Shown: positions 23,489 to 62,483, counted from the first letter of the stretch. The stretch: 64,000 bases of DNA from a virus (IMGVR_UViG_3300025099_003636:1-64000), one strand, 5' to 3'. Made by a program: numbers and translations. The notes: a model not told the origin generated them from the letters alone.

Positions 23489-25492
23489 ATGTCAACACAC
23501 AGGTCATATTTTAGTAAAAATAATACAATAATAGCTGACAGCAGCACCAACACAGGTAGAAATCCCGTAACACAACTATTTTATGGTAGAAATAGTACTA
23601 GATGTAAATTTACCGGTTTAACTGGTGATACTTGTAATGATAAAACTGGATTCACACCAACCGCCGCACACGGTTATAGTAGGTTTATTTTTGACCTGGA
23701 TTTAACAGACTTAAGAGAAAAATATAACAACTGTTGTATGCCTTTAACATCTTGTACTTACACAGGTCTGTATGATGTTGCTGCAACTTTTAGTTTTGAC
23801 TTTACGTCATCAGGTTCTCAATTTACGTTTATGACTATAGAAAACTCAGCTGGTTCAGCTGTTACGTATATAAACATGCTTACTAATACGTTTCCTGGTG
23901 ATAATGGGTCAGTTATAACTGATGGTACTAATTTTTACACCCAATTTCTATATACTAGTGCTAGTACTGTAGAAACACAAGCACAAAATTTTTGTTTAGC
24001 TGTAAATGGTGTTAGTGGACATAATGGTACTATTTTATGTACTTCAAGTGGGGCTACTGTAACATTAACACAGGTTGGTCTTGGTTCTTCTGGAAATACA
24101 CTGGTGGGGCCTGGTACTGTAATTGCTCCAACAGTTAATATTGGTGGGTTTGATACTATCAGTAATATTGTGTTTAGTGGTGGACCAGTATCTTTTAGTG
24201 GTGGAGGTCAATCTTATGATACTTGTGATGGACAAACTGGTTACACTATAACTTACAACCCAGATGTTAAACACACATTACGTATGACGAATACTTCTAG
24301 TTTTGATGACCGATTAATTAATCAAAAAGTTTTAATTAACGACACTAGAAGAGCCACTTCATTTACTCTTATGTTGTATAAAGTTCCTAGTTCCAAAGCG
24401 TCTTTATGGGATGAGGGTGTTGGGTATGATTATGAAGTTCCTAGTGTAGCTTTAGAACCTGAGTATAATAGGTCTCAATCTAATAGACCCAGTAACTGGA
24501 TTAATTCTACAACATTAACTACGTGGCCTAATCAAGGAACATACAATAATTTAATTCCATCTTCATATACTGTTTTAGATACACAAAGTTTTGACGCTGG
24601 AAATGAAGATATAGCGTTTAATAGTGTAGCTTTAAATAATGAAATTGGTAGTCAATTAGTATCACCACAAACTGGTGTTACATATGGAATAGCTTTTCTA
24701 CCACAGTTTGAATTATTAACTGGTTTAACAGAGGCTTATTCAGTTGGTTTCTTTTCTCGTCACACACAAACATTTTTTGAACCTTTCTTAGAAACTTCTT
24801 TTGATGATTATATAAATGATAGTAGAAATCATTTTGAACTTAATTGTGAAAATAGATTATTTTTATACGCTTATGATTGTAATGGTGAACCTATGTGTTT
24901 TGATATGGCTCCTGTGGTAAAGATTAGGGACTGTAACGATTTAGTTACTACCACAATAACCGCTACCACATTAACTTGTGGGGCTTACTACATCGATTAT
25001 ACCATACTACCACCTTTACCACAAACACCACCGGTACAATATACTGATGAATGGACTAATCTTTTTGTGGGTGGAATATCTCAACCAAATATAACCAACG
25101 AATTTATAATACATACTAATGGTTATAGTATTGGGACTACTGTTATGAAACCAAAAATATATGGTTATTCTGTTTCAGGAATTAAAGATGATGAAAAGAT
25201 TAAAGCTGGTGATACAAGAAAAATATTTGTTTCTGCTAGGGTACCTTACACTGTAAGTCAAGAAGCTTTAGTAGACAACATACAATACAGGTTATACGTT
25301 AGACAAGGTAACACTCAAGTAGGGGTTATTCCTTGGACTAAAATAAATAAAACTTTTACTGATAATTATTTCTTATTGGATACCTCTTGGATGATACCTA
25401 ACGAGTATTACCTGGATATAAAAGCAACTTCTAACCAACAAGTAGATACTTATAGTAAAGTAATAAAGTTTCAAATAACTAACCAATTATGA
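23489..25492 (+). CDS. Virion structural protein (beta-rich, Thr/Gly/Cys-rich)
   Basis: TATTTATA at 23466; Ig-like composition; late operon. Confidence 0.55.
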   Translation: MSTHRSYFSKNNTIIADSSTNTGRNPVTQLFYGRNSTRCKFTGLTGDTCNDKTGFTPTAAHGYSRFIFDLDLTDLREKYNNCCMPLTSCTYTGLYDVAATFSFDFTSSGSQFTFMTIENSAGSAVTYINMLTNTFPGDNGSVITDGTNFYTQFLYTSASTVETQAQNFCLAVNGVSGHNGTILCTSSGATVTLTQVGLGSSGNTLVGPGTVIAPTVNIGGFDTISNIVFSGGPVSFSGGGQSYDTCDGQTGYTITYNPDVKHTLRMTNTSSFDDRLINQKVLINDTRRATSFTLMLYKVPSSKASLWDEGVGYDYEVPSVALEPEYNRSQSNRPSNWINSTTLTTWPNQGTYNNLIPSSYTVLDTQSFDAGNEDIAFNSVALNNEIGSQLVSPQTGVTYGIAFLPQFELLTGLTEAYSVGFFSRHTQTFFEPFLETSFDDYINDSRNHFELNCENRLFLYAYDCNGEPMCFDMAPVVKIRDCNDLVTTTITATTLTCGAYYIDYTILPPLPQTPPVQYTDEWTNLFVGGISQPNITNEFIIHTNGYSIGTTVMKPKIYGYSVSGIKDDEKIKAGDTRKIFVSARVPYTVSQEALVDNIQYRLYVRQGNTQVGVIPWTKINKTFTDNYFLLDTSWMIPNEYYLDIKATSNQQVDTYSKVIKFQITNQL

Positions 25493-26043
25493 AAAAAATA
25501 AGAATTTCAGAAAGTGAATTAATTTCTCTTATAGAGAAAGCTGTTAATGAGAATTTAGGTGCTACACCATCATTAACTGCTCATGGAGGTGGTTTCTCAA
25601 ACTTAGGTATGGGAAAACCAACTGATAAATATAAAGACCTATATGAGGATGATGATATAGAAGAAGAGATGGTGGAGGACCAGGACCCTGGAATTGAAAA
25701 ATCAAGTGCCGTTGCTATAGACCAAGAAAAAGATGTTGAGGATGACTGGACCGGTGGTTCAGGTAGAAATCCAAGTATGAATATAGAAAGTATTGTTGAG
25801 AGGTTGAAACGAAAGTTAAACGAGGCTGATACCATTCCTGAAATTACTCCTGATGTAAAAATTCCAGAAGGTTTATTTACGAAAAAGGCTTCGGAGATAG
25901 TTGCTGGATTAAAAAAATTAAAAGATGGGGCAAAGGAAGCTTTAACAAGAATTACTTATTACATAAATAGAGCTGGTAAAAACTTATCTAACAAAACTGA
26001 AGTTTTAAAAGCTAAAGAAATATTAAAAAAAGAAAATAAATAA
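25489..26043 (+). CDS. Putative internal head protein with type-1 leader
   Basis: MKKIRISESEL...VNE leader; internal LNE site. Confidence 0.6.
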   Translation: MKKIRISESELISLIEKAVNENLGATPSLTAHGGGFSNLGMGKPTDKYKDLYEDDDIEEEMVEDQDPGIEKSSAVAIDQEKDVEDDWTGGSGRNPSMNIESIVERLKRKLNEADTIPEITPDVKIPEGLFTKKASEIVAGLKKLKDGAKEALTRITYYINRAGKNLSNKTEVLKAKEILKKENK

Positions 26044-26067
26044 ATAAAACCTAAAAAATTAAAAATT

Positions 26068-26133
26068 ATGAAATGTGATTGTCAAGTATGTAAATGTGGT
26101 ACAAAATGTGAATGTACCTGTTGTGACTGTTAG
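26068..26133 (+). CDS. Metallothionein-like Cys-rich micropeptide MKCDCQVCKCGTKCECTCCDC
   Basis: 21 codons, 9 Cys in CxC/CxxC/CC motifs, A-rich AAAAATT-ATG start like neighbouring genes, followed by a terminator; too short for the supplied ORF track. Confidence 0.75.
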   Translation: MKCDCQVCKCGTKCECTCCDC

Positions 26134-26161
26134 ATAACAGTTAATAAAAAAAATAAAGATA

Positions 26162-26486: not shown

Positions 26487-26516
26487 AAGCTTTTTTTATT
26501 ATAAATATCCCGACAT

Positions 26517-26566: not shown

Positions 26567-28369
26567 TTATCTAAGTTCTCTAACATCAAATGTTCTAACA
26601 CCGTCAACAGTGATTCTTCCGTAGAATCTATTGTTCACCATTTTCTTAGCGTATCTAGTCATGATACCTTTGATTGGTGTAAAGTTGAATGGGTTATACA
26701 TTGTAGGAGTTAACTGTAATGGTACATATGGTGCGTAAACGTACCCAGTATCCAATAAAGATGTTCCTTTATGTCCAATTAACACTTGGTTAGCTGGGAA
26801 GTAAGGGTCTCTATATACAGTAAATCTTCCTGATAATGTTCCAATTTTCTCAATACCCATATTGTATTGGTCTTGGTCAGCTGCTGCGTTTGATACGTGG
26901 AAGTACTCCAAGTCATCAAATATAGCAGAAACTTCAGAAGAACAAACAATCCAGTTAGCCCCACCTCTTAAAGTAGACTTGTGGATTTGAGCTGAAATTT
27001 GGTTAATCGCTGTGATTAAAGTTTGGTTCCAGTCTTTTTGAGTATATGGAGCTTGACCAGCTGAGAATCTCTTCCAACCGTTGTAGTCCCATCTTAAATC
27101 CCAAGCTGCACCTTTTCTAAGGTCTCTTAAGATTTCTCTATCAATCTCTGCTGCAACTTCTTCAGATAATAAAGCTGTTAATTCAGCTTCAGCATCGATG
27201 TTGTGGAATGCAGAAACGTCTTGTGCAAGTTCTGGTGACCATTGAGCTCTTAATTTTCTTTCACTTACAGAAACTGTAACACCTTGAAGGTCGAAAGAAA
27301 CTTCTCCCATATCCTCTTCAAATTCTAGTGTAGCGTATTGTCTCCATTCTGCACGGAAATCATATTTTGTCTCTGCACCCGTACCACTCATACCAACGTA
27401 ACCATCAACTGATGTACAAGATATACAAGCTGGACAAGATAAATCTACTTCAATGTAGATATCACCGTTAGCGTCACAAGTGTCAGCTCTATCAACAATA
27501 CCAAAACCATATTTCTGTGTAACAACACGGAATAAGATTGGTGTTTGTGTTCCAAGCCCTACTGTTGAAGTTGCGATATTATTACCCGTAGTTGCAGTAA
27601 CACTGTCACAACAAGCTAAAGGTACTGAAGTAGTCATTTGTAATGAAGATAAGAAAGTTTCTGAGTCTTGCTCATTTCCATCAGGACCAGTTAAAGTACC
27701 AACTCCAGTTTGTGAGAAACCAGATAACTTAACAATAACCCCTCTAGTACAAACTGATGTATCTCTTTGACCGTCAGTTAATGCTGGTGGTAAAGCTCCA
27801 TTCCAAGTAACCTCAACAGTACCCGCCGTAACGTTAGTGTACTTACCTCTAGAATAGTCATACGTACCATCACTCATTAACTGTGGTGAATTAGAAGCGT
27901 AGTAGTCGTCATATAAGTTACCAGTTGCAGCTGATACTGGATTAGCGTTAGCTGGATTTCCTGGTGCTCCCATTGGTGCGTAGTGACTACCTGAACCAGC
28001 TCCATTGACAGCAGAACCAGCTACTAAACTTCTAGGTGTAATTTTAGGTACGAAGTAGAACAATTTACCAATTGGTAAGTTCATAGCTTGTACAGAAACG
28101 ATATCGTTAGCTAATAATTTCGAGAATACTCTTCTAATGATTGGAAATACAACCGTTTCGAAGGACCCTGAATCACCAGCAGTCGTTGCTTCGTTTATTA
28201 AATTTGTTGCTTGGTTTTCATATAACTGTGCAACATTTTCTTTGATGTGTCCCTTAAGTCCGTCTAAGAACCCAAGACCATCCCATTTTTTCAAGGTATC
28301 TTCTTTGATAACTTTAAGGTGTTTTAACCCTATGTTACCAACCATACCTGATTCTAATAATGCTCCCAT
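26567..28369 (-). CDS. gp23: Major capsid protein, T4 gp23-like, with large insertion
   Basis: IVSVQAMNLP.G, RKLRAQWSPELAQD...H.IDAEAEL, EIDREI, YAPYVPL, P..F.P..GIMTRY. Confidence 0.96.
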   Translation of the reverse strand: MGALLESGMVGNIGLKHLKVIKEDTLKKWDGLGFLDGLKGHIKENVAQLYENQATNLINEATTAGDSGSFETVVFPIIRRVFSKLLANDIVSVQAMNLPIGKLFYFVPKITPRSLVAGSAVNGAGSGSHYAPMGAPGNPANANPVSAATGNLYDDYYASNSPQLMSDGTYDYSRGKYTNVTAGTVEVTWNGALPPALTDGQRDTSVCTRGVIVKLSGFSQTGVGTLTGPDGNEQDSETFLSSLQMTTSVPLACCDSVTATTGNNIATSTVGLGTQTPILFRVVTQKYGFGIVDRADTCDANGDIYIEVDLSCPACISCTSVDGYVGMSGTGAETKYDFRAEWRQYATLEFEEDMGEVSFDLQGVTVSVSERKLRAQWSPELAQDVSAFHNIDAEAELTALLSEEVAAEIDREILRDLRKGAAWDLRWDYNGWKRFSAGQAPYTQKDWNQTLITAINQISAQIHKSTLRGGANWIVCSSEVSAIFDDLEYFHVSNAAADQDQYNMGIEKIGTLSGRFTVYRDPYFPANQVLIGHKGTSLLDTGYVYAPYVPLQLTPTMYNPFNFTPIKGIMTRYAKKMVNNRFYGRITVDGVRTFDVRELR

Positions 28370-28403: not shown

Positions 28404-29867
28404 TTATAATTTAGACATTAAGTCTTTCATTCTACTAAATTGAGGGTTTTCATATACTTTTGATTCCAAAAGTTTTCCACCACTCCCACTAGTAGATGAT
28501 TTAGTAATTTTTCTTTCAACAGCTTCCGAAATAGTTTTAGATTTATCTTCAACGTCTTGCGAAAACTCTTCTTTGATTACCTTATACAACACTTTAGATT
28601 CCTTTAATGTTTTAACATTATCGAAACGTTTTAATATGTTGATTTTTTCCTGTTTAGTAGTTGAATGTTCAGTGAATAGTCTAGTAACGTAAGCAAGATT
28701 AGAATTAAATACACCCACTTCATTCAATTTATCTTTAAAAGTAACTAATGCAGTTTTATACTCTTCATTCTTTGTTTTTAAAGATTCTACTTCTTCTTTA
28801 AGAAGATTATAGGACTTTCTTATACGACTTTCTCCTAAATTAGCTTTTCTTGGTCTACGAGATTCTTTATTTTTCCCCCAGATTTTTTGTCCAGCCATTC
28901 TAGAAAATGAACTATTTGGACCGGCTTTCAGTCTACTAGTTTCATCCACTTCTTCTTTATTCTCAACATCTTCAGCATCATTTATATGCCCCCAATCCTT
29001 TTCATGGTCTTTTTTTCTATTACCCCATTTACCATAAGAGTCACCTTGAGTGTCATGCCCTTTACCTAGTCTCATTCCCATAGATTCATGTTCTCTATCG
29101 TAAATTCCTTGGTCTTCGTGCATTTCTTCTTCCATGTCGTCTTCATGCATTTCTTCGTGCATTTCTTCTTCCACTTCAGAATCATCTTTCTCCTCAATAT
29201 TGGTACGGTCTAAATATGAATCGTAACTTTTTTGAGCTCTTTTAGATTCAGGAGCGTAAACTCCTTCAACATCACCTTCATACATTTCTTCATCAAGTTC
29301 GATTTCATAAACTACCTCGTCCATTTCTTTGTTATCAGTAGTTTCTTCTACTTCGTCATTTTTCATGGATTTCTCTTCTTTCATAGTTTTTGATTTTTTA
29401 GATTGCTCCAATTTAATTAGGTATTCAGTATCCGTATTGGTATCGGTTAATTCAATTTCCTCATCATCCTGTTGAATGATAATTCCATCTTCATCTCCCA
29501 TAGCTTTGAATACTTTCAGTACTTCAGCATCTGATGCTAATGTTAAGTCTAGAGGTGGCAACTCTAGTGATACTTCGTCGTCTTCAGTATCGTCCTCCAT
29601 GCCAAGTTCTAAATCGATATCCATTTCAGGTTCTTCTGAATCCACTTCATCAGCTTCATCTTCTAAATCTTCAACATCTAAATCGACAGCAACTTCTTCT
29701 TCGTCTTCTTGCTCTTCCAGGTAATCATTTTCACTTAATGACTCTTTTACTAACTCATGAATTTCTTCCTTCATAGTTGAAGAAAGTATTTCTTTTGCAT
29801 TAGACTTCATAGTTTCTTCTAACTGTTCAGCCTCGAGCAACGCTTTTTCTAAGATTGTTTTACTCAC
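28404..29867 (-). CDS. Prohead core/scaffolding protein (gp22-like)
   Basis: Lies between protease and MCP; very acidic and coiled-coil with many (L/I)xE sites. Confidence 0.75.
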   Translation of the reverse strand: MSKTILEKALLEAEQLEETMKSNAKEILSSTMKEEIHELVKESLSENDYLEEQEDEEEVAVDLDVEDLEDEADEVDSEEPEMDIDLELGMEDDTEDDEVSLELPPLDLTLASDAEVLKVFKAMGDEDGIIIQQDDEEIELTDTNTDTEYLIKLEQSKKSKTMKEEKSMKNDEVEETTDNKEMDEVVYEIELDEEMYEGDVEGVYAPESKRAQKSYDSYLDRTNIEEKDDSEVEEEMHEEMHEDDMEEEMHEDQGIYDREHESMGMRLGKGHDTQGDSYGKWGNRKKDHEKDWGHINDAEDVENKEEVDETSRLKAGPNSSFSRMAGQKIWGKNKESRRPRKANLGESRIRKSYNLLKEEVESLKTKNEEYKTALVTFKDKLNEVGVFNSNLAYVTRLFTEHSTTKQEKINILKRFDNVKTLKESKVLYKVIKEEFSQDVEDKSKTISEAVERKITKSSTSGSGGKLLESKVYENPQFSRMKDLMSKL

Positions 29868-29976: not shown

Positions 29977-30678
29977 TTACTTACTTAGAAAATTGTTTAA
30001 TCGGTTCATTAGATTAACCGACTTATCTACATTTATGGATTTTGTTGATTTTTTTGTTTCTACTACCGGTAATTCTTCATCTACACTATCAGCGTTTTCA
30101 CCTTCTTTAAATAGGTATGACCCTGGTGTTGATGGTGATGAAACTAAGTCAAAACATACTAATTCGAAGTCTTCTTGGACTTCGTTGTATTCACCGTTTT
30201 TTGCTAGTGACCCAACACCTCTAGAAGAAATTCCTAATGTAACACCTTGTCTTAATAAATTTGCGGCCATATCACCAACACAAGAAATCACACCTTCTTT
30301 AAGATACCCAGGTGATGTTAGTAATTTTAACTTACCTATTAATCTATTACCGTCCCACCAAGTTTCTGTTATTATATGTGAAGCTCTATCTAAATCAATT
30401 AAAGAAGATTCTGGATGATTTAATTCTGAAATAGCACCCCCCTTTTTAATAACTTCTTGATATCTATCATTTTCTCTTTTAAGAATATTTTCTGGATATA
30501 CTCTTCCGTTTCTATTTGGTACACCATATTTTTGTAATATAGCGTTCATATATATTTCGCCATCAAAATTATCTTTTGTCATTTCTTTGATTATGTTTTT
30601 ATTATCTTTTGGTGAAATGTACCCGTCACTTTCGACTAATATACCGTGACCAACCTCTCTAGCTTCTAAAATTTTCAT
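29977..30678 (-). CDS. gp21: Prohead protease, T4 gp21-like
   Basis: NRNGRVYP, ELNHP, SH, LGISSRGVGS, FDLVSSPS. Confidence 0.95.
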   Translation of the reverse strand: MKILEAREVGHGILVESDGYISPKDNKNIIKEMTKDNFDGEIYMNAILQKYGVPNRNGRVYPENILKRENDRYQEVIKKGGAISELNHPESSLIDLDRASHIITETWWDGNRLIGKLKLLTSPGYLKEGVISCVGDMAANLLRQGVTLGISSRGVGSLAKNGEYNEVQEDFELVCFDLVSSPSTPGSYLFKEGENADSVDEELPVVETKKSTKSINVDKSVNLMNRLNNFLSK

Positions 30679-30744: not shown

Positions 30745-31182
30745 TTACTTTTTCTTTTGATGGAATTTAAATATTTTTGTGGTTGATAGTGGACCATTTA
30801 TTATTTTTCTTGTGATGTCATTAATGGATTCTGAGAGTATTCTAGATTTAATATTGTATTTATTTCTATTATTTAAAAACATTGTTATTTCACACCTCAT
30901 AAAACTACGTTTCCCTAGTTTCATACCACTAGCTCTAAGGTCTAAATCTACTATAGCAATACTTTTAAATTCTGTATTTTTAAGTTCTCTATGCACTAAA
31001 TTATCAATATTAAATTTAAACTTTTTAATGGGTCTATCCCAGTTTTCTACCTCTTCTAAAGGTTCTACCCAAGTGCTTAAATTTAAATATAGTGATTTTA
31101 ATGCACTAGAATCTACTGTACCATATGATGTTCTAAATACATCTGAAATTTTAGTTGTAACTTCTCTACCTTGTTTTGCCAT
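30745..31182 (-). CDS. Hypothetical protein (head module)
   Basis: ORF co-oriented within the head cluster. Confidence 0.7.
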   Translation of the reverse strand: MAKQGREVTTKISDVFRTSYGTVDSSALKSLYLNLSTWVEPLEEVENWDRPIKKFKFNIDNLVHRELKNTEFKSIAIVDLDLRASGMKLGKRSFMRCEITMFLNNRNKYNIKSRILSESINDITRKIINGPLSTTKIFKFHQKKK

Positions 31183-31225: not shown

Positions 31226-31972
31226 TTAGTTCAAGTCCTCTAGTAGGCCCCTAACCCTAATATAACTGTGTTTGGAGCTTTTTAATGTGTTAATTTCATT
31301 CTTTACTTCCACTAGTTTAGCAGAAATATTCTCGTCGTTTGATTCGGATAGTAGTTTATTTAATGTTGTTAAAGCAACATTTTTTACATTATTAAATTCT
31401 TTTGTGACTGTGTCCTCAGTCATAAGTAAGGTATTTTGTAATATATCTTTCTCTGATTCAGTTAGTTTAGTGCCAAATTCTTTCTCGTAGTTTTTAGACA
31501 TTACGTGGGATAATACTTTAGGGTTAATAGGTTTATCTATACTTTTTTTAGTTTTTTTATTAACCATAGATTCCACTAAAACTTTATTTGATTGTATTTT
31601 ACTATCTATTGTTTTTATATTTGTATTAAAAACTATATTATCTATTTCTTCATATATCCTATTTGGTTCATTGGAACATGCGTCTTTCCTATCGTTTATA
31701 ATTTTATCTAATATATTTTTAACTTTATTTAATTCTTTTTTATTTTTTTTAAGGTATTGTGTAGCCTCAGTTATATAAAGTTTGCTATCTTCTAGTGAGT
31801 CAAATTTTTTGCTTTCTATTTCATTGTATAGTGTAAAAAATTCTTTAAGTGTCTTAGAAAATTTCATGGCCCCCATTATTACAGATAGATTTTTTTTAAA
31901 ATCTTTTTTATTTCCATAAGAATTTTCTAGAATAGTGTCTAAGTTTTGTTTGTATTTAGCGAATCCGTTCAT
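31226..31972 (-). CDS. Hypothetical head-associated protein
   Basis: Late motif upstream; several (L/I)xE sites. Confidence 0.7.
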   Translation of the reverse strand: MNGFAKYKQNLDTILENSYGNKKDFKKNLSVIMGAMKFSKTLKEFFTLYNEIESKKFDSLEDSKLYITEATQYLKKNKKELNKVKNILDKIINDRKDACSNEPNRIYEEIDNIVFNTNIKTIDSKIQSNKVLVESMVNKKTKKSIDKPINPKVLSHVMSKNYEKEFGTKLTESEKDILQNTLLMTEDTVTKEFNNVKNVALTTLNKLLSESNDENISAKLVEVKNEINTLKSSKHSYIRVRGLLEDLN

Positions 31973-47847: not shown

Positions 47848-48654
47848 ATGAAAGAAAAATTAAAAGAATTATTATCAATACCAACTAAGACTTGGGAGGA
47901 GGAAAGATTAATCAAATATCTTATAGGTCATTTCGAAGAAAAGGGTTATAAATATGAAAAAGATGATTTAGGTAATCTGTATGTAACAAAAGGTATTTCC
48001 GATTATTTTCCTTTAGTTCTTGCACACACTGACAGTGTACACGACATTGAGGAGATGGAAGTCAGGGAAGAGTATTTGCCTAACTCACAAGGTGAAAGTA
48101 AATTAGCTCTTAAGGCTTACACAAAAGAAGATGGTTTACCTACAGGGATAGGTGGTGATGATAAAGCTGGAGTTTTTATATGTTTACAATTACTGGAAAA
48201 GTTTGATGTGATTAAAGCTTTTTTTCCAGTTGCTGAAGAGACTGGATGTCATGGAAGTAGAGGTGCTAATGAAGAGTTTTTTAAGGATGTTGGTTACGCG
48301 ATACAATTTGACTCTACTGAAAATGATACCATGTCTCTTTCCTTAATGGGCGTTAAATTATTCGAAGAGAAATCTGAATTTTTTAATAAAACTCGTAACG
48401 TAATTTTAGAGCATGGTTTTACTGAGTGGAGACATCACCCATATACTGACACTATGATTTTAAAAGAAAAGTTTAATTTTGCTTGTTTAAATTTTGCTGC
48501 GGGTTATTATAATTACCACACAAGTAATGAATATGTGGTTGTAGAAGACGTAATAAACTCTATAAAATTAGGAGAAAATGTCATAAAAAAATTAGGTAAT
48601 TATTTTTATGAATTTAAACCGGTTCAAGAAAAGTCTAGTTCTTGGTGGGGGTAA
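47848..48654 (+). CDS. M28/M20/M42-like zinc peptidase
   Basis: AHTDSVH, GGDDKAG, AEETGCHGS, QFD, GYYNYHT..E. Confidence 0.85.
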   Translation: MKEKLKELLSIPTKTWEEERLIKYLIGHFEEKGYKYEKDDLGNLYVTKGISDYFPLVLAHTDSVHDIEEMEVREEYLPNSQGESKLALKAYTKEDGLPTGIGGDDKAGVFICLQLLEKFDVIKAFFPVAEETGCHGSRGANEEFFKDVGYAIQFDSTENDTMSLSLMGVKLFEEKSEFFNKTRNVILEHGFTEWRHHPYTDTMILKEKFNFACLNFAAGYYNYHTSNEYVVVEDVINSIKLGENVIKKLGNYFYEFKPVQEKSSSWWG

Positions 48655-53427: not shown

Positions 53428-53880
53428 TTACCACAAAGGGTTAGCTTTCCCTCTACTTGTTTGGTAGGAGTCTGCCCATTTACTATTTATTATTTGGTTT
53501 GCCATTCCTCTAGTTATTCCTGTTTCCCATACTCCAAGTGATGCTGTACCAGCTCCTGCACCATCATCTGATTCTCCAGACTCTGTTCCCGCATCTTGTT
53601 CCATAAATTCACCTGGTGCATAACTATCTTCTGGTCCGTCACTATAAAAGTCATACGCTGAATTTTCTTTAGAGTAGTTGGTTTCTGGTTCAGTAAATCC
53701 TTCCCCCTCTAATTCTGGTTCAGAACCTAAAGCTCCTTTACTTGTAAAACTATACTCACTTGCACCATCTGTATCGGCATAACCACCTTGTAGACCGGAC
53801 ATAATATCTTCATTTAATGGGTTACCATCAAACATTATTTCCTTAACTCTATCTATATTTTCTTGTAACGAATCACACAT
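53428..53880 (-). CDS. Acidic protein with type-2 leader
   Basis: LQENIDRVKEIM...LNED; tandem TATTTATA upstream. Confidence 0.65.
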   Translation of the reverse strand: MCDSLQENIDRVKEIMFDGNPLNEDIMSGLQGGYADTDGASEYSFTSKGALGSEPELEGEGFTEPETNYSKENSAYDFYSDGPEDSYAPGEFMEQDAGTESGESDDGAGAGTASLGVWETGITRGMANQIINSKWADSYQTSRGKANPLW

Positions 53881-54258: not shown

Positions 54259-54672
54259 TTACAGTCTACGTGATTTTAACCAAAATATTTCTCTACCTGC
54301 TCTAGTTTCTAAGGCTCTTAATTTTTGTTTAGATTTTTTTAAATCTAATTCTGGGGATTTTTCTAAATCACCCATCAAAAATGATGTAAACTCTAAAACA
54401 TCAGCATTTAACTCTTCTACGTATTGTACTCTATCTTGTAATTGTTCTATTTGGTCTTGTTGTAAAGCAACAATTTCTTCAGGTGATAAAAGTTTTTCTA
54501 ACTCATCTTCAATGCCTTCAATATCATCTTCAGCATCATAAATGTCATTATCAGTATTAATCATATTAGCTTGGTCCAAAACTCTAAGAACCTCATCATC
54601 AGCAGTTTCTTGTTCAAGTATATTTTTAAGTACTTTGGTTAACTGTTCTTCAGAAATTTTAATTTTTTTCAT
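54259..54672 (-). CDS. Coiled-coil protein with type-1 leader
   Basis: MKKIKISEEQL...ILEQ; TATTTATA upstream. Confidence 0.7.
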   Translation of the reverse strand: MKKIKISEEQLTKVLKNILEQETADDEVLRVLDQANMINTDNDIYDAEDDIEGIEDELEKLLSPEEIVALQQDQIEQLQDRVQYVEELNADVLEFTSFLMGDLEKSPELDLKKSKQKLRALETRAGREIFWLKSRRL

Positions 54673-54743
54673 TTTTTGTTTTTATTATAAATATATCCTA
54701 ATATTTATTTGGTTGAGTGGTAAAAATTTTTTATTTTTGTTGT

Positions 54744-55250: not shown

Positions 55251-55676
55251 TTAGAATTTGTACGATAAACCAAGATTGAAAGTGCCCTCTCTTTCTCCGT
55301 TTTCATCTTCTTTTAATCCCATACTATAGTTTGGTTCAACATTAAGACCTTTCCATACATTATAAGAATAACCAACACCAACAGTTAAGTTGTCCATTGT
55401 TTCTTCTGTAGGAGCTTGAACAGACACGTATGTGTTTGCGTTCCAGTTGTATCTCCCCCAAAGGTCATAGTTATCGTCACCTTCTGCATCTACACCATTT
55501 TTTAGTAAACCTACTGTCCAAGTATCATTTAACGCATAACCAAAACCAATGTTTTGTGTTATTTTGTCCATAGTTTCCTCTTGGTCACCATCGTAAGTTG
55601 TTACTACCATAAAATTTTGTGCTGAAGCAAGTAATGTTGATAATGCTATAGCGGATGTTAAAAATATTTTTTTCAT
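55251..55676 (-). CDS. Small outer-membrane beta-barrel protein
   Basis: Sec signal MKKIFLTSAIALSTLLASAQ, alternating aromatic strands, C-terminal LGLSYKF BAM signal. Confidence 0.8.
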   Translation of the reverse strand: MKKIFLTSAIALSTLLASAQNFMVVTTYDGDQEETMDKITQNIGFGYALNDTWTVGLLKNGVDAEGDDNYDLWGRYNWNANTYVSVQAPTEETMDNLTVGVGYSYNVWKGLNVEPNYSMGLKEDENGEREGTFNLGLSYKF

Positions 55677-56236: not shown

Positions 56237-57220
56237 ATGAAACTAAAAATATTAAAGGAACAGAATAAAAATTATAACTTAAGTGTCTTAGATTTTATAA
56301 GACTTTTAGACCCTAGTAAGACTGGCAAATTTCTCCAAATTTTATTAAACGAATTAAAGTCTTATGATAATTCTATTGCTGTTTCACAAGGTAATGTTTG
56401 GGAATTAAGTAATCAGGTTGAGGTGTCTACTGGTGTTAATGAGGAAATAATAAACTTATTGATTGAGTGTCTGGGTGGTGTGGATATTATTAATGACTTA
56501 GAAAAATTTGAGGTGTTGTGTGAGGAAAATTTAATCACTATTAAAGATATACAAGAATATAAATCTTTAGGTGAGATATCTTTGGCTGTAATAGATGCTG
56601 AAGAAAAAAGAAAGGGAACTTTGCCAAAAAAAAATATTATTTTAGATAATTCTGAATACCTAGTACTTAAACCTTTAAACATATTTGCTTCTAGAAAATA
56701 TGGTGCATCCACTAAATGGTGTACTTCCAGTAAAGAACCTAAAACTTTTTATGATTACTCTAATAAAGGGATACTACTTTATATATTATCAAAAGAAAAT
56801 AATAAAAAATGGGCTGTATATTATGATTTAAAAGATAAAGAACTGTCTTGGTGGAACTCTAGAGATATCTTAACTGATGGTTATCTGGTGGATTTACCTG
56901 AAAAACTAAAAAAGGATGTGTTAAATTACATTTTAAATGAATCCAACCCAAACAGTCATTATTTCGATAAAGAGACTAAATTACTGTCTGAACAAATTTT
57001 AATTGGTGTTGTGGATGAGGATGGTCAATATAATGAAGTTTTAGCTACCCCAGAACCATTTACTGGTATATGGCGTAATGGTGTTAATGGTCCTACCTGG
57101 AATCCAGGTGAATATGCGACCACAAGTACTGAAGATAGAATAGATGGTTTGGTTAATAAAACATTAGAGTGTCACTACACCATAAAAGCTTTAAATGAGG
57201 GTGGTAAAATTATTAACTAA
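56237..57220 (+). CDS. Hypothetical phage protein (YGxxTKWC motif)
   Basis: ASRKYGASTKWCTS...F..Y...G.LLYI motif, recurrent in large phages. Confidence 0.65.
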   Translation: MKLKILKEQNKNYNLSVLDFIRLLDPSKTGKFLQILLNELKSYDNSIAVSQGNVWELSNQVEVSTGVNEEIINLLIECLGGVDIINDLEKFEVLCEENLITIKDIQEYKSLGEISLAVIDAEEKRKGTLPKKNIILDNSEYLVLKPLNIFASRKYGASTKWCTSSKEPKTFYDYSNKGILLYILSKENNKKWAVYYDLKDKELSWWNSRDILTDGYLVDLPEKLKKDVLNYILNESNPNSHYFDKETKLLSEQILIGVVDEDGQYNEVLATPEPFTGIWRNGVNGPTWNPGEYATTSTEDRIDGLVNKTLECHYTIKALNEGGKIIN

Positions 57221-57521
57221 TATAATACTTTAACTTTTCTTCGTATATATATCCTGGTTGAACTCCTTGCATAGATTCTTGTACTTCTCCGTTTTTAATA
57301 ATTGTTACGTTTGGTATCCCTCTAACTCCATATCTCGCAGCTAAAGATTTCATTTGGTCAACATTAACTTTTAATATATTATTAGGGTATTGCTCTTTTA
57401 ATTTATCAATCGTTGGTGTTAACATTCTACACGGTCCACACCACGGAGCCCAAAAATCCACCAAAATAACTTCTTCATTTTTTAGTTTTTCATTAAAAAC
57501 TTCTTCATTAATTATATCCAT
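57213..57521 (-). CDS. trxA: Thioredoxin
   Basis: VDFWAPWCGPC, KVNVD, GIP. Confidence 0.95.
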   Translation of the reverse strand: MDIINEEVFNEKLKNEEVILVDFWAPWCGPCRMLTPTIDKLKEQYPNNILKVNVDQMKSLAARYGVRGIPNVTIIKNGEVQESMQGVQPGYIYEEKLKYYIS

Positions 57522-57715: not shown

Positions 57716-58243
57716 ATGAAAAATCTACTAACAACACTACTTTTAATACTAACCATAACATCATATGGACAAACTAAATTAGATTCTCTTATATTTGATA
57801 TGGTGAACGAATATCGTGTTTCTAACGGATTAACTGCTTGGGTTTGGGACGATAATACTTTTTTAATCGCAGAAAAACACAATGAGTATCAAGTAAAAAT
57901 ATCTGATATTTCACATAAAGAATTGCAGGATGTTGAAAACCATAAAGAAGTTAGTAGGTTAGCTCATCGTTTTGATTATGTTTTTACAGATTGGATGCGT
58001 TGTGGTGAAAATATAGCTGTTGTTAATACATTAGATTTATCAGTAGAAGAAATTGCGACTACTACATTAGAAATGTGGATTGCTTCACCACCACATAACA
58101 GAACACTTTTACAACCAACTAAATATGAATATGGTGCTATTAGTTCACATAGTAGTACAAAATGGTCACGTTCTAAGTACTCTCACAGTAATAGTTGGGT
58201 TTATGTTACCTTAAATGTTTATGGGGGGTCTTTACCTAATTAG
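57716..58243 (+). CDS. Secreted CAP (SCP-like) domain protein
   Basis: Signal peptide; VNEYR..NGL, SH, GENIA, W..SPPH...LL. Confidence 0.85.
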   Translation: MKNLLTTLLLILTITSYGQTKLDSLIFDMVNEYRVSNGLTAWVWDDNTFLIAEKHNEYQVKISDISHKELQDVENHKEVSRLAHRFDYVFTDWMRCGENIAVVNTLDLSVEEIATTTLEMWIASPPHNRTLLQPTKYEYGAISSHSSTKWSRSKYSHSNSWVYVTLNVYGGSLPN

Positions 58244-60083
58244 ACATCCAGTTTGTATTGTAACTTGCCATATTATTGTTTACTACATCGTCAATAAGTG
58301 GTCCAGTTGCAATACCTACAGCCCATCTTCCACCACCTCCACCACCAGAAAAGTCAGGACACTCCATACCCCCTAGTTTTTTCTTCTTTGGACTTTTATT
58401 AATCCGTCTAGTTGTAAATTTAAATGGGAATTTTAATCTTGTGGTATATTTCTTACTATATTTTTCTTTAGGTACAAACTTTATTTCCCATTGACGTGTA
58501 GGTGAAACAATTTTTACATCTTCGAAAGTTCCTGGTTCACCTGGCTTCTCATCAGAGTCACCTTCAGGTGGATAAACCTCAATTCCTAAATCTACCATAC
58601 AATATTTATACTTATCGTAGTTTGGACAGTTAAATCTACCTTCATCATCTGGTTTACAGTTTTCTAATGGGTCACCGTAATTATCTCTATCATCTTCATT
58701 TGTTGTTGCTGAAGGTCCACTTCCTTTTGCCATAGTAAAAGGTGATGGTGGGTTTGGTCCACTTGAACCGTCATTATTATAACCACTACTGTCTATCTGT
58801 GGTTCTGGTAATGTTACCCCTATTTTTGCAAATGCGTTATCAATATAAGTTTCTACTGATTTAGCTCTTGCGTCGGATAGTTTCTGGAATGACCAACTTT
58901 TAACCGCTCCTCCATTTCTAGCCCTACTTGCTGATGTCCAAATTTTGTATGATGTTATTTTATATTCGACTCCAGGATTTTCTTTTAAAGATTTTGCAAG
59001 AGTGGCAACCGCACCATTAATTTCATTTTTTAAGTCTTGGTGTAATTCTGTACTATTATTAACGAATGGTGTGAACTCTTTATCTTGTACACCCATTAAT
59101 TGTAACCCTAAATCTATAGAACAAGATTCGGTAGGTTCTTCTCCTTCTGTCTCTATAGGGTCTAGATTTATAATTTCATCTGGACCTTTAACATTTCTTA
59201 AGTTTATTTCAGAAAAGAATTTTTTAAGTAATTTAAGGTCTGATAATTTTGCTGCACGTTTTTTATTTCTTTTCATTTCTCTCCATTTCTGAAAATACTC
59301 TTTAAACAACAGAAATAAACCTCGTTTGTCCTCTTCTGTCATAACCCAACCTTTTTCATTATAAGCTTTATCTTCGTTTTTCCACCTTTTTTTAGATTTC
59401 CTATCTAACTTTTTATAAAAAGCTTTCATAAGTTTAGATGTGGAAGCTCTTAAATCATCAAAATCCTCATCTCTTTGTTCTGTATTTTTTAGTCTGTCAT
59501 TTTTCCATTTTTCCTCATATCTTTTATCACTAGCTATTTTTTGTACAGTCCACTTTTCTAAAGCTGTATCATATTCTTCTTTATTTCTTGCAAACATAAC
59601 TCGTTCACGCAAGTCTAAAGCTTCAAATTCCGCTACACCCAAGTCTAATATCCTTAACGCTTCACCCAACAAACTTTTATAATTACTCAAAGCACCATAA
59701 CCTCTTTGTTCAGGGTCTGCATTTACTTTTTCTTCAAATTTAGGAATGTAATCTTGTAATAACTTTATATAATCTTCTAGATACGGATTTTGTAATTCTT
59801 TTACTCCTGGCAAACCACGGTATTTATTTTTAATAGAAGGTGCTTGGTCAATACCATAACCATCTTTTAATTTTTGTAACAACTCACTGTCCTCTTTAGA
59901 CCACTCATCACAACAACCTGGTGCTGTACTACCGTCAGGCATACCGTTATCGTCTATACAAGGACATTCCTTTTCTCTTTCTATACCCATTACAAAATCG
60001 GACTCTTTTTGTTCGAATATTAAATGGTTTAGTCCCATTATTTCTCTGTTTCTATTTAATTCTTCTAAAAGCTGTTTTTCCAT
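58236..60083 (-). CDS. Putative head-cargo protein with type-2 leader and OmpA-C-like motif
   Basis: LLEELNRNREIMG..IFEQ leader; SAS...LSDARAKSVETYI. Confidence 0.6.
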   Translation of the reverse strand: MEKQLLEELNRNREIMGLNHLIFEQKESDFVMGIEREKECPCIDDNGMPDGSTAPGCCDEWSKEDSELLQKLKDGYGIDQAPSIKNKYRGLPGVKELQNPYLEDYIKLLQDYIPKFEEKVNADPEQRGYGALSNYKSLLGEALRILDLGVAEFEALDLRERVMFARNKEEYDTALEKWTVQKIASDKRYEEKWKNDRLKNTEQRDEDFDDLRASTSKLMKAFYKKLDRKSKKRWKNEDKAYNEKGWVMTEEDKRGLFLLFKEYFQKWREMKRNKKRAAKLSDLKLLKKFFSEINLRNVKGPDEIINLDPIETEGEEPTESCSIDLGLQLMGVQDKEFTPFVNNSTELHQDLKNEINGAVATLAKSLKENPGVEYKITSYKIWTSASRARNGGAVKSWSFQKLSDARAKSVETYIDNAFAKIGVTLPEPQIDSSGYNNDGSSGPNPPSPFTMAKGSGPSATTNEDDRDNYGDPLENCKPDDEGRFNCPNYDKYKYCMVDLGIEVYPPEGDSDEKPGEPGTFEDVKIVSPTRQWEIKFVPKEKYSKKYTTRLKFPFKFTTRRINKSPKKKKLGGMECPDFSGGGGGGRWAVGIATGPLIDDVVNNNMASYNTNWMSN

Positions 60084-60094
60084 TTTTTATTTTT

Positions 60095-60586
60095 TTAATT
60101 CCAAAGTATTATTATATCTTTATCTGTTAGGTCTATTTGTACTGATGTAGGTAATATCGTGTGATACCTCATTTTGTCATCTTTTTCATCCATATAATAC
60201 CATTTATCTGGGTCATCACTCTTAAATCCACCCATATCATCCACTATTATTTCTATACGTTTCTCAGTTTCAACTTTTGTGTAGTCTTCATCGAAAATTT
60301 CAATAACCACTTCAAGTTTTACACTTGTTGTGTATATACTAATATCTTTGATACCCCAACTTCTAATATCCATATCATATCTCCAATTTACTTCACAGTC
60401 CATATATGATATATCAAAATCTCTACCTTTATATTCAGGGAAATAATCACCCACACCAAATAAGTCTACATCATCTATTTTGGTCGTAAATGAGTTTGGG
60501 TCATCAGAAAAATTTCTTTGTTCTTTTACAATGCTTTCGACAACTTGTGTAAGTTGTGATTCCGATAATTTTATTTTTTTAATCAT
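60095..60586 (-). CDS. Protein with type-1 leader
   Basis: MIKKIKLSESQL...IVKEQ; TATTTAT upstream. Confidence 0.7.
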   Translation of the reverse strand: MIKKIKLSESQLTQVVESIVKEQRNFSDDPNSFTTKIDDVDLFGVGDYFPEYKGRDFDISYMDCEVNWRYDMDIRSWGIKDISIYTTSVKLEVVIEIFDEDYTKVETEKRIEIIVDDMGGFKSDDPDKWYYMDEKDDKMRYHTILPTSVQIDLTDKDIIILWN

Positions 60587-60680: not shown

Positions 60681-61022
60681 ATGAAAAATTTAATTACTTG
60701 CCTAATAATCTTTGTTATTGCTCAGACAATGGTTTGGTTACAATTAAATGGGCAATTTGTGTGGGATTCTTTTAGGAAATATGAGTGGGTCCTTATATTA
60801 TTTGGTTTACCGATTAGTTGGTTATTTTTGGAAGCTACTCGTTATGGGGTGGCTGCTTTTGACGGATTATTATGGCCTCAGAGATTCTTAGCCTTCGCGT
60901 GTGGGATTGTGATATTTAGTTTATGTACTTGGTTATTAAAAGGTGAAGGTATTAATACAAAAACACTCATCTCATTGTGTCTTGCGACATCTTTAGTTTT
61001 AATACAAATCTTCTGGAAATAA
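60681..61022 (+). CDS. Four-TM small membrane protein (DMT/SMR-like size)
   Basis: Four hydrophobic segments in 113 aa. Confidence 0.65.
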   Translation: MKNLITCLIIFVIAQTMVWLQLNGQFVWDSFRKYEWVLILFGLPISWLFLEATRYGVAAFDGLLWPQRFLAFACGIVIFSLCTWLLKGEGINTKTLISLCLATSLVLIQIFWK

Positions 61023-61050
61023 ACTGTAAGTTACTCACTATTTATATATT

Positions 61051-62244
61051 ATGGATACTAACTTTAAAGACATTATTTTAAGTGAAGGTTATGTAGGTAA
61101 TATGTTAACTAAAGAACTACCTAAAGAACTCGATAATACTTTATTTACACTAATGCATATGTTAGGAGGATTCAGTAGTTCAGATGTTATTTCTTTTGCA
61201 AGAAATGCAAACTATAGGGAACGTAGACTACTAAATAAGATGGTTAATGACCTTAATCTTTATGAAAAACCTTTTGATAAAGAAAAAATTAAAAACTCTT
61301 CTAGATATCGTGCTCTAACAGTATTTCTTAAGGTAATAGGTGATTCTTCTAATATTAATGAACAACACACTATTAGTCACGAATTACCCGAAGATTTAGA
61401 CAACCAATTATATTTTCTATCGTACTACATTGGTGGTTTTACAACCTCTGATGTTGGTCGTTTTGTTAAATCCTCTACTGATAAACAAATTAGAAAGTTA
61501 AGACGTTTACTTAACAGGATTCCTTCAGACCAATATGAATTAGTTTCATTAGCTGGTATGCACGACTCCATATATGAAAGTCCGGATTATCAAAAACTAA
61601 TATCTTTAATCTTGGGTAGATTAACTGAAGATGTACAGTATGACTGGGAGGGGTATCCCACTACAGACACTAACCCATATTTTACTAGATATGTGACACC
61701 TACCCTAAAAAAACAAATATTTACTTACTGGGACAAACATGGTATTTGTTATGATTGTTTAAAATATTTTGGTATTGACGTGGAAGACCCTGGTCCTTTT
61801 GACGATATTGCTGACATAATATACCCTGTGTTGTACATAGAGTATTTGGGTGGTGTGGAAAATACTGAATTTGGGAAACTGGGTTATTCTAGAACTAATG
61901 AAGGTGGTTGGGCATACTTAAAATTTAAAATAGAACCTATTAGATATGATTACCTGTTTGACGAAAGTGAAAGTTTTGGTGAACAAGGTTACTCTTGTTG
62001 GGACATTAGAATTCTTATAGATAAAGATAGTGACTTGGATTTGCCTGTTAACCCTGAATTTATTGACAACGACTATTCACCTTTTATACAAGACTTATTT
62101 CCAGAAAGTTCAAGAAATAAATTATCTTCTTTTAGGAATTACAATGAGGACCAACAGGAAACTATAGAACTATTATGGGAACATTATGTGGATAGTGTTG
62201 ATTTTACACATACATTCTGTCAGGTTGAGGTTATTTTAGTTTAA
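61051..62244 (+). CDS. Late protein with two tandem helical repeats
   Basis: ELP..LDN.L..L....GGF..SDV..F occurs twice; TATTTATA at 61039. Confidence 0.7.
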   Translation: MDTNFKDIILSEGYVGNMLTKELPKELDNTLFTLMHMLGGFSSSDVISFARNANYRERRLLNKMVNDLNLYEKPFDKEKIKNSSRYRALTVFLKVIGDSSNINEQHTISHELPEDLDNQLYFLSYYIGGFTTSDVGRFVKSSTDKQIRKLRRLLNRIPSDQYELVSLAGMHDSIYESPDYQKLISLILGRLTEDVQYDWEGYPTTDTNPYFTRYVTPTLKKQIFTYWDKHGICYDCLKYFGIDVEDPGPFDDIADIIYPVLYIEYLGGVENTEFGKLGYSRTNEGGWAYLKFKIEPIRYDYLFDESESFGEQGYSCWDIRILIDKDSDLDLPVNPEFIDNDYSPFIQDLFPESSRNKLSSFRNYNEDQQETIELLWEHYVDSVDFTHTFCQVEVILV

Positions 62245-62483
62245 CGACCTACTTTAGAAAACATTCCTTGAAAAATTTCTTCGATAGCCCCTATTACGGC
62301 ATATTGGTCTTCACCCCAGTTAGATTTATGTTTATCTATAATTTTATCTACAACAAATCTTAAATCTTTTTCTAGTAAATCCCATTTATCTGGGCCTTCA
62401 TTTTGCCACCAGTTATCATCTTCGTTAATTTTATTAACAATTTTTTTTAACTGTTCTTCTGATATGATTATTTTTTTTGCCAT
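62241..62483 (-). CDS. Small protein with type-1 leader
   Basis: MAKKIIISEEQL...INED. Confidence 0.7.
   Translation of the reverse strand: MAKKIIISEEQLKKIVNKINEDDNWWQNEGPDKWDLLEKDLRFVVDKIIDKHKSNWGEDQYAVIGAIEEIFQGMFSKVGR

Follow-up and report, generated by a model that had tools for sequence, protein, structure and literature searches.

Introduction

In phage T4, the capsid-targeting sequences (CTS) of IPI, IPII, IPIII and Alt reportedly bind to the core of the prohead before gp21 removes them (PMC7411985, PMC9026906). The principle, a conserved CTS on diverse internal proteins, is known from this phage (PMC3012670, PMC9026906), and the CTS has already been suggested as an evolutionary route to load diverse proteins (PMC7411985, PMC9026906, PMC3012670). 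C-terminal propeptides occur in T4 Alt, T4 gp21 and SPN3US gp245 (PMC9026906, PMC7411985). In phiKZ, 201phi2-1 and SPN3US, dozens of head proteins are cut after Glu by the gp21-related gp175/gp245, and the propeptides of phiKZ-like phages have been suggested to direct proteins into the prohead; C-terminal propeptides occur there too (PMC7411985, PMC9026906). These phiKZ-like propeptides are about 110-130 aa long with the motif A/S/G-x-E and have not been reported to form short sequence families on unrelated proteins. In encapsulins, a short terminal peptide docks diverse cargo inside an HK97-fold shell; it is usually C-terminal and uncleaved and binds the shell protein, with no protease or scaffold, and encapsulins belong to cells, not to viruses.

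Here we analyzed a stretch of 64,000 nucleotides (the window) that belongs to an uncultured jumbo phage with a genome of about 300-400 kb; its contig of 99.6 kb has 119 ORFs. At least four classes of short N-terminal leaders are carried by 19-20 of these ORFs (17%, about one gene in six). Judging from their sequences, we find it fairly likely that the leaders act as N-terminal propeptides for capsid targeting in the manner of the T4 CTS, used on a far larger scale: the system would cover 19-20 genes on a 100-kb fragment and hundreds of cargo families across an uncultured clade of 300-400 kb phages whose heads are T4-type.

The leaders share several properties with the T4 CTS. They are short N-terminal peptides on otherwise unrelated proteins and end in (L/I)-x-E, the head module has the T4 order and includes a gene for a gp21-family protease, and the cargo sets vary between related phages. 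As judged from the upstream motif TATTTATA, expression of the leader genes may be late. By inspection, however, the leaders have no sequence similarity to the T4 CTS MKTYQEFIAE beyond the xE ending and helical character; the two are analogous and not demonstrably homologous. The leaders are about 13-28 aa long as compared to 10 in T4, belong to four or more classes in one genome and eight or more across the clade, and are carried by 19-20 genes per 100 kb as compared to four proteins in T4. Many of their cargo proteins are acidic, and some exceed 700 aa, as opposed to the small, basic internal proteins of T4. V is frequent at P3 of the leader sites, leader repeats occur inside some proteins, and the present system is known from sequence alone. 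Like the phiKZ-like giant phages, this is a jumbo phage with a gp21-related head protease, but its leaders are short with [LIV]-x-E and its head genes are T4-type, not phiKZ-type. The encapsulin peptides offer an analogy for the rare C-terminal leader copies.

A T4-type head module

The head genes match T4 Pfam families, and they are arranged like T4 genes 20-67-68-21-22-23 (portal, small core genes, protease, scaffold, MCP). They are located in the window as follows.

31998-33833, minus strand: T4-type portal (Portal_T4, 1e-78)
31226-31972 and 30745-31182, minus strand: two small putative prohead-core genes
29977-30678, minus strand: prohead protease, Peptidase_S77 (PF03420, 9e-26), T4 gp21 family
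28404-29867, minus strand: putative scaffold/core protein, 487 aa, very acidic in the middle, assigned by its [LIV]xE sites and position
26567-28369, minus strand: major capsid protein (MCP; Gp23, 2e-73)

The S77 protease is the proposed leader-removing enzyme. The MCP contains LINE/ATTAGD, with a predicted maturation cut after LINE (residues 58-61, nt 28187-28198). At this propeptide boundary [LIV]-x-E-A is kept in relatives down to 44% identity, and (L/I)(I/V)(N/S)E/A is still conserved in Flavobacterium phage immuto and in Microcystis phage Mel-JY01. The putative scaffold, whose position between protease and MCP matches T4 gp22, has 21 [LIV]xE sites in 487 aa as compared to 1.8 per 100 aa in the proteome. 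A preliminary description of this DNA had pointed out both the LINE/A of the MCP and the richness of the scaffold in such sites, and both are borne out.

Leader families

Nine N-termini were quoted in the preliminary description, and all nine were found at the positions it gave. A 24-residue HMM of the type-1 leader was run on the six-frame translation of the 99.6-kb contig. Seven ORFs scored 37-44 bits, all from residue 1 or 2, and the next best match had 6.6 bits. Four of the seven are inside the window (25489+, 54672-, 60586- and 62483-) and three are outside it (genome 80980-, 82463- and 84303-). The type-1 leader has about 21 aa, with the consensus MKKIxL(T/S)ExxLxxI(I/V)xx(V/I)(I/V)(K/N)E. 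A type-2 profile found four ORFs (53417-, 53880-, 60083- and genome 88092-). Both leaders form clean profile families here, in N-terminal position only, from residue 1 or 2. The leaders and two doubtful candidates are listed below; the slash marks the proposed cut.

25489-25554, plus strand: type-1 leader MKKIRISESELISLIEKAVNE/N of a 184-aa acidic protein (gene 25489-26043), by HMM
54613-54672, minus strand: type-1 leader MKKIKISEEQLTKVLKNILE/Q of a 137-aa acidic protein (gene 54259-54672), by HMM
60521-60586, minus strand: type-1 leader MIKKIKLSESQLTQVVESIVKE/Q of a 163-aa protein (gene 60095-60586), by HMM
62421-62483, minus strand: type-1 leader MAKKIIISEEQLKKIVNKINE/D of an 80-aa protein (gene 62241-62483), by HMM
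53334-53417, minus strand: type-2 leader MINTLITEIDRARQIMGLKPRIDTPLNE/Q of a 761-aa protein (gene 51132-53417), by profile
53809-53880, minus strand: type-2 leader MCDSLQENIDRVKEIMFDGNPLNE/D of a 150-aa acidic protein (gene 53428-53880), by profile
60012-60083, minus strand: type-2 leader MEKQLLEELNRNREIMGLNHLIFE/Q of a 615-aa Cys-rich protein (gene 58236-60083), by profile
45670-45717, plus strand: doubtful member MKLIITQRQSNLLIKE/A of a 366-aa protein (gene 45670-46770), by short-BLAST clustering
38429-39550, minus strand: gene with DKINRIMEIA at residues 15-24, the weaker match to type 2, outside the profile family

Gene 25489-26043 is translationally coupled to gene 23489-25492 and converges on the MCP operon; its orthologues adjoin the MCP in genomes G001 and G003. 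Gene 60095-60586 heads an operon that includes the type-2 gene 58236-60083, and gene 51132-53417 begins 10 nt behind gene 53428-53880. The 62483 leader also weakly matches the sister class MKIIITESQ.

Five type-1 members had been named at the outset, and the HMM recovered all of them except 45670. This N-terminus failed both the type-1 and the MKIIITESQ HMMs and was linked only by short-BLAST clustering; it is conserved among orthologues and is at best a divergent type-1 member. Similarly, the three main type-2 members stood, whereas the weaker match at 39550 fell short of E 1e-3, its N-terminus being nonetheless conserved in orthologues. The count of two classes, read as two addresses, was too low: this genome has at least four and the clade at least eight, and the classes grade into one another under single-linkage clustering.

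Spread among viruses

Type 1 was found in 384 protein clusters of public data. The string KKIIRLTESDL is present in at least 120 IMG/VR viral stretches and in none of 185,579 prokaryote genomes. No type-1 leader was found in 50,697 cultured-phage records, and the leaders are absent from the nearest cultured relatives. The position was N-terminal in 144 of the 150 best public type-1 matches. Outside the N-terminus, type 1 has about 30 genuine copies in the interior of proteins of other phages and a few at C-termini; such copies are not predicted by a pure N-terminal leader model.

The S77 protease was present in 18 of the 18 tested leader-bearing contigs that carry an S77 protease or a T4-type head gene. 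Three leader contigs had no S77 protease, and these also had no T4-type MCP, portal or homologue of the TerL of this phage. The co-occurrence is partly trivial because the whole clade has the S77 protease.

The proposed cut motif at leader ends

All leader classes end in [LIV]-x-E, the tripeptide at the conserved MCP propeptide boundary. The information content of type 1 exceeds 1.5 bits per column and is about 0.3 right after (V/I)(I/V)(K/N)E(Q/D/N). The terminal E is found in 133 of 150 type-1 sequences and I, V or L two residues earlier in 144 of them. Over eight classes, [LIVM]xE lies at or just past the motif end in 306 of 310 motifs as compared to about 30% of random 20-aa windows, the many copies not being independent events because the tripeptide belongs to the inherited motif. 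The sequence [LIV]xEQ has 30 copies in this genome, 13 of them, from several classes, at residues 8-32 (1.8 expected, p = 5e-8). In type 2 the site is kept behind a linker that varies; for example, gene 51132 has GLKPRIDTPLNE/Q here and GLKQPTNNLITE/Q in G001. AlphaFold predicts a helix at type-1 residues 8-22 and a disordered linker from residue 23. Two points count against a cleavage site: P1' is Q, D or N in the leaders but A in the MCP, and [LIV]xE, with 1.8 copies per 100 aa, is a frequent tripeptide of charged helices, so its specificity is weak.

If the leaders are capsid-targeting propeptides, we infer core binding, cleavage, virion residence and ejection of the cargo. During prohead assembly, the leader helix would attach the new protein to the scaffolding core; cleavage by the gp21-family (S77) serine protease would follow, after the terminal [LIV]-x-E of each class. 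The cargo would be released inside the head, remain with the DNA and probably be ejected into the next host, as are IPI, IPII, IPIII and Alt in T4.

Alternatively, the leaders may be docking helices that stay uncut and bind some other shared partner, such as a phage assembly factor, a chaperone or unfoldase, a compartment or a membrane; [LIV]xE would then be the end of an amphipathic helix. The motif does resemble a generic element, a strand leading into an N-capped amphipathic basic helix, and its best PDB matches are of this kind with E about 0.1. The internal and C-terminal copies also fit docking. The phage encodes DnaK, as well as a Clp-type ATPase adjoining one candidate gene, and KK-hydrophobic-basic peptides resemble DnaK-binding motifs. 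However, a phage HSP70 was found in only 6 of 11 leader-bearing genomes and is absent from G007, a 296-kb genome rated complete by CheckV that has nine type-1 genes. No recurrent neighbor family accompanies the type-1 genes in 136 loci. Uncut docking also leaves unexplained why eight sequence-unrelated classes share one terminal tripeptide with the MCP boundary, why type 2 keeps its xE across the variable linker and why swap junctions (below) fall at the xE site. We regard it as unlikely.

Cargo and leader swapping

The sequences behind the leaders had been called unrelated, in agreement with our BLAST searches, in which the only similarity was one paralogue pair outside that claim. Type 1 alone is found on 146 cargo clusters. 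The cargo is 72-945 aa long. Among the cargo domains of relatives are Endonuclease_NS, Peptidase_M23, Tae4, lysozyme, LysM, GNAT and HD, and the cargo of this genome includes a Zeta-toxin/AAA_33 kinase; such domains would fit, indirectly, an ejection of the mature cargo into the host. Two features of the cargo weigh against propeptides of the CTS kind. The head load would be large, with 17% of ORFs and some proteins of 615-945 aa, and the cell-wall hydrolases could instead be lysis enzymes.

Homologous cargo in relatives bears different leader classes, joined at the xE site. One pair with different leaders is 95% identical from RVIKEQ/GVRTLV on, a second is 73% identical from KIILEQ/DRD on, and a third, 55% identical, has type 1 in one member and the ITEEERSRILGMH class in the other. 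As these junctions indicate, the leaders are modular. The classes might even be distinct addresses, each for a different core partner or assembly stage, that sort the effectors, but we consider this quite improbable. If true, hundreds of interchangeable effectors (nucleases, cell-wall hydrolases, kinases and proteins of unknown function) would be sorted by place, copy number or ejection order, and recombination at the xE joint would let a cargo switch its address, which would amount to a combinatorial protein-sorting code within a virus capsid.

The swaps also bear on whether the leader-bearing genes are one old multigene family of which the N-terminal segment alone is still recognizable, so that the cargo would in fact be related and a sorting function need not be invoked. 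Many members are small proteins, acidic or of low complexity, that evolve fast, small type-1 genes form tandem clusters in complete genomes, and the grading of the classes would suit a common origin. On the other hand, near-identical cargo bears different leaders, the leader is no more conserved than the cargo between orthologues, and the range in length, the number of type-1 cargo clusters and the unrelated Pfam folds (nuclease, M23, Tae4, lysozyme, GNAT, HD and P-loop kinase) are hard to derive from a single family. We give such a descent little credence.

The upstream motif

The motif TATTTATA lies 4-24 nt before the start codon. Its copies include:

54686-54693, minus strand: example copy, 13 nt upstream of the type-1 gene 54259-54672
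53898 and 53904 (first positions), minus strand: two overlapping copies upstream of the type-2 gene 53428-53880
23466 (first position), plus strand: further copy
30699, 31994, 33865, 35611 and 39964 (first positions), minus strand: further copies

The portable promoter-plus-leader cassette of the preliminary description finds no support in the DNA, since leader-coding DNA is 61% identical, third codon positions are 48% identical and the upstream regions share little past the 8-mer. Every type-1 gene starts with ATG AAA AAA A.. behind this AT-rich motif, and an A-rich, unstructured 5' coding region with a promoter might have been copied along with late genes because it is translated strongly in a host that relies little on Shine-Dalgarno sequences, the peptide having no role; but these identities and the synonymous codons that vary at invariant residues point to conservation of the protein, which reaches 21 residues, internal copies are far from any start and the classes differ in nucleotide sequence, so that this explanation has hardly any likelihood.

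An exact TATTTATA was found within 45 nt upstream of 17 genes, of which eight are leader genes (Fisher p = 0.001); the other nine include the protease, portal, TerL and a core protein. From this distribution, TATTTATA may be a late promoter, and the leader genes would then be expressed late with the head genes. In agreement with the earlier statement that most leader genes are behind the late motif or in an operon behind one, 16 of 19 are at or just behind a TATTTATA start.

Leader classes and their members

The shared N-terminal leaders are real and lie far beyond chance. Every N-terminus quoted in the preliminary description was present where it had been placed, and the only occurrences of a core pattern for type 1, [LIV][ST]E[SEAT][EQT]L, on the contig are at residue 6 or 7 of seven proteins. 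A 24-residue type-1 HMM recovered seven ORFs at 37-44 bits, four of them within the window; the next six-frame stretch scored 6.6 bits. The gene at 45670, which had been assigned to type 1, fell below both the type-1 profile and the profile of the sister class MKIIITESQ, and it is tied to the other leaders only through single linkage of short-BLAST matches. Type 2 kept its three members in the window and gained one more beyond it, and the gene at 39550, first offered as a weaker match, did not qualify. Because two further leader classes, MKxLIKKILxE and (E)EEKNRIRGLH...[LIV]xE, were found on the contig, the original count of two leaders was too low. When N-termini were clustered without supervision and homologous cargo pairs were left out, 20 of the 119 ORFs (one of which looks spurious) fell into a leader super-class; signal peptides were set apart as their own class, an internal control of the clustering. 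After removal of the first 28 residues, no BLAST similarity was found among the leader proteins except for one paralogue pair, which upholds the claim that their cargo (the part after the leader) is unrelated.

A pair of proteins of 486 and 542 aa (genome 77461-79089 and 82508-83968, loci L001/L002), 42-45% identical to each other, may represent a further leader class. Both start with M(A/T)KK(T/S)KISL... and carry [LIV]xEQ at residues 17-26. A type-1 subclass, MKKIIRLTESDLHNIVKESVNRVLxE, has an extended helix with the xE site about five residues later, and was seen in the following related loci:

L135: 6373-7062
L117: 2176-2799
L125: 373-1122
L170: 7042-7896

Anatomy of the type-1 leader

The consensus of 150 type-1 matches anchored on the capping box was M-K-K-(I/V)-(I)-(K/R)-L-T-E-S-(D/E)-L-x-(R/K)-(I/L)-(I/V)-x-(R/K)-(V/I)-(I/V)-(K/N)-E-(Q/D/N). 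Information exceeds 1.5 bits per column through the final (K/N)-E-(Q/D/N) and is about 0.3 bits directly after it, and D, E, G and P are abundant in the residues downstream. AlphaFold, run with a five-sequence alignment on the product of genome 83971-84303, gave with low to moderate confidence a helix at residues 8-22, disorder at 23-72 and then a helical hairpin. A profile search of the PDB with the leader returned generic strand-helix matches only. The leader-coding DNA of seven paralogues is 61% identical (48% at third codon positions), and synonymous codons are freely used for the invariant residues. The peptide is thus what selection acts on, and the DNA-level cassette that had been proposed found no recently copied example.

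Type-1 copies also occur within the chain of about 30 public proteins, as a second or third copy that almost always accompanies an N-terminal one, and at the C-terminus of a few. In some proteins with internal copies the inner copy starts at a Met, which suggests an in-frame fusion between adjacent leader genes; a protease would convert the products of such fusions into polyproteins. The internal and C-terminal copies do not fit simply into the leader model. C-terminal propeptides are known from T4 Alt, T4 gp21 and SPN3US gp245 (PMC9026906, PMC7411985). The idea that C-terminal copies lose their Glu was dropped, as four of six keep it and the cases are too few.

A putative cleavage site at the end of each leader

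The T4 protease gp21 cleaves after (L/I)-x-E, and the T4 capsid targeting sequence (CTS) ends in such a site (PMC9026906). Profiles for eight leader classes, drawn from this genome and from related loci, were run as a set of seven plus a separate eighth, and their matches are nearly always N-terminal. In the seven-class run, 306 of 310 motifs carried [LIVM]xE at the motif end or a few residues past it; the background is 30-32% of random or non-leader 20-residue windows. Within this genome, 13 of the 30 occurrences of [LIV]xEQ fall at residues 8-32, where 1.8 were expected (p = 5e-8), and these 13 are distributed over several classes. Type 2 has a linker of varying length and sequence between its conserved helix (LxExxRxxEIMG) and the xE site, and the site is kept in orthologues (e.g. 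PRIDTPLNE/Q vs. QPTNNLITE/Q). The sequences argue that the terminal tripeptide is probably selected in its own right, its occurrences not being strictly independent events because each class inherits its ending. The major capsid protein (MCP) reads ...QATNLINE/ATTAGD at its predicted propeptide boundary, and (L/I)(I/V)(N/S)E-A is kept at this position in all relatives examined, including the cultured phages immuto and Mel-JY01. The P1' residue differs, being Q, D or N in the leaders and A in the MCP.

Leader swapping and cargo

Orthologues in the three closest relatives have the same leader class, and homologous cargo with different leaders was found in the wider clade. In the first pair, proteins of 164 and 180 aa match at 95% identity from RVIKEQ/GVRTLV to the end, with a type-1 leader on one and a leader of the MNKSYSKLRHIQEAN class on the other. 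A second pair is 73% identical from KIILEQ/DRD onwards (type 1 vs. the MNNKSLLLEKILLNM class), and a third is 55% identical (type 1 vs. the ITEEERSRILGMH...FLTE class). The joints lie at the xE site or just before it. These swapped pairs are the best evidence that leader and cargo are separable modules.

Most cargo has no known domain. The leader proteins of the window gave no real match in Pfam or PHROGs, and in the ESM Atlas the 615-aa and 761-aa type-2 proteins had poor models, with no lead beyond a weak OmpA-like one. On this contig a clear domain was found in one leader cargo alone, a Zeta-toxin/AAA_33 P-loop kinase at genome 97959-98612 (L002:18960-19613); it has an MKxLIKQVLxE leader (MKGLIKQVLSEE), and its gene follows a TATTTATA start. 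In a set of 80 large leader-bearing proteins chosen to represent relatives, whose N-termini were checked by eye, Pfam found one each of Endonuclease_NS, Peptidase_M23, Tae4 amidase, LysM, PG_binding_1, phage lysozyme, GNAT and HD. This mix of predicted domains fits proteins that would act on the host at entry; lysis enzymes would fit it also.

The upstream motif

The contig has 38 copies of TATTTATA. Twenty of them precede a start codon on their own strand by no more than 60 nt, in windows that make up only 2.7% of positions. Seventeen genes have a copy within 45 nt of the start, and eight of these are leader genes (Fisher p = 0.001). The protease, a core gene, the portal and TerL are among the remaining nine, as is the opening gene of a structural operon whose last gene is the type-1 gene at 25489. 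Most leader genes do lie behind the motif, as had been described, with 16 of 19 at or directly behind a TATTTATA start. We infer that TATTTATA is a late promoter. Copies in the window are at:

23466, 26507, 30699, 31994, 33865, 35611, 39964, 49228, 53898, 54693 and 61039

These copies lie only 4-24 nt before the start codons of head, packaging and leader genes, a spacing at which 5' leaders would be very short. TATTTATA is the reverse complement of the T4 late TATAAATA.

Head module and candidate partners

The window is the first 64 kb of one 99,619-bp viral contig with a GC content of about 31%. A family search of the contig found T4-type head genes in T4 order:

31998-33833, portal (Portal_T4, 1e-78), adjoined by TerL
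between portal and protease, two small genes
29977-30678, protease (Peptidase_S77, gp21 family, 9e-26)
between protease and MCP, an acidic scaffold-like gene of 487 aa
26567-28369, MCP (Gp23, 2e-73)

The MCP is 93% identical to that on the 210,568-bp IMG/VR contig G001, which CheckV estimates to be 66% complete. Contigs with relatives of the leader proteins reach 424 kb, and leader-bearing contigs rated complete measure 257-412 kb. By these sequence comparisons, the 99.6-kb contig is a fragment of a jumbo phage; the clade likely infects Bacteroidota. Judged by MCP, Microcystis phage Mel-JY01 and Flavobacterium phage immuto are the closest cultured phages, with 41-45% identity over half the protein, and megablast against 50,697 phage records found no near-identical DNA for the head region.

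The S77 protease is present in 5/5 and 13/13 leader-bearing contigs that carry S77 or a T4-type head gene. This co-occurrence is weak support, because leaders restricted to a single clade would show it anyway. Three leader-bearing contigs (G016, G017 and G019) lack the S77 protease; they are uninformative as counter-examples, since a T4-type MCP, the portal and, with the window's TerL as query, a TerL homologue are also absent. Phage DnaK is rejected as an obligate partner, being present in only 6 of 11 leader-bearing genomes, and no other gene family recurs beside type-1 genes in 136 loci.

Spread of the leaders

The type-1 profile matched 384 of 1.84 billion representative proteins at E up to 1e-3, and in 144 of the best 150 of these the match lies within the first five residues. 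KKIIRLTESDL, back-translated to a DNA pattern, gave no match in 185,579 prokaryote species (one genome each) and was found in at least 120 IMG/VR stretches, many on contigs of 250-412 kb; gene context was read from IMG/VR loci. In complete genomes of about 300 kb, type-1 matches number 7-10 per genome and often form tandem clusters of small genes. Cultured phages gave no tblastn match to a type-1 protein, to the public match P0004 or to the 23-aa consensus, and immuto and Mel-JY01 had no type-1 match. For type 2, a word-index search returned nothing beyond orthologues.

Comparison with T4 capsid targeting

In T4, a CTS of 10-20 residues on the internal proteins and Alt attaches to the prohead core and is cut off by gp21; the diverse internal proteins of T-even phages have only the CTS in common, and the CTS packages foreign proteins (PMC3012670, PMC7411985, PMC9026906). 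The principle of such loading is already known, and a CTS-like mechanism for the leaders is, on balance, probable. Unlike the T4 CTS, the tags of this clade are longer and unrelated to it in sequence, come in several classes per genome, serve a much larger and more varied cargo set, extend clade-wide in uncultured jumbo phages, and show swapping at the putative cleavage joint. A literature search with the leader motif strings found no relevant paper.

If CTS-like loading holds, each virion of this clade of environmental jumbo phages would deliver dozens of proteins, drawn from hundreds of gene families, the majority of them without known function. Ejected effectors and anti-defence proteins could then be picked out of metagenomes by the leader as a simple sequence flag. 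The T4 principle, so far a four-protein curiosity, would become a general and evolvable means of loading cargo, with several kinds of tag and recombination at a defined joint. Phage-based tools for protein packaging would gain new, longer tags. If the leaders bind another partner instead, they would mark a large interaction network, as yet unknown, in giant phages.

Other genes in and beyond the window

Further genes were noted, the first entry being judged from N-terminal sequences:

window 1-15468, plus strand, a long block of sugar and nucleotide-sugar genes (aldolase-, KdsA-, cytidylyltransferase-, epimerase/dehydratase- and glycosyltransferase-like)
window 41503-43368, minus strand, Hsp70/DnaK, back to back with the next
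window 43610-45652, Clp-type AAA+ ATPase (phrog_4871, 'ATP-dependent protease')
window 47848-48654, a peptidase
window 55251-55676, a small protein with a Bacteroidota-style signal peptide, amid leader genes
window 57213-57521, a thioredoxin-like gene with a WCGPC motif, also amid leader genes
genome 62866-67647, minus strand, a giant ORF of 1,593 aa
genome 67683-76550, minus strand, a giant ORF of 2,955 aa

The two giant ORFs are without a leader and have a repeat region in common.
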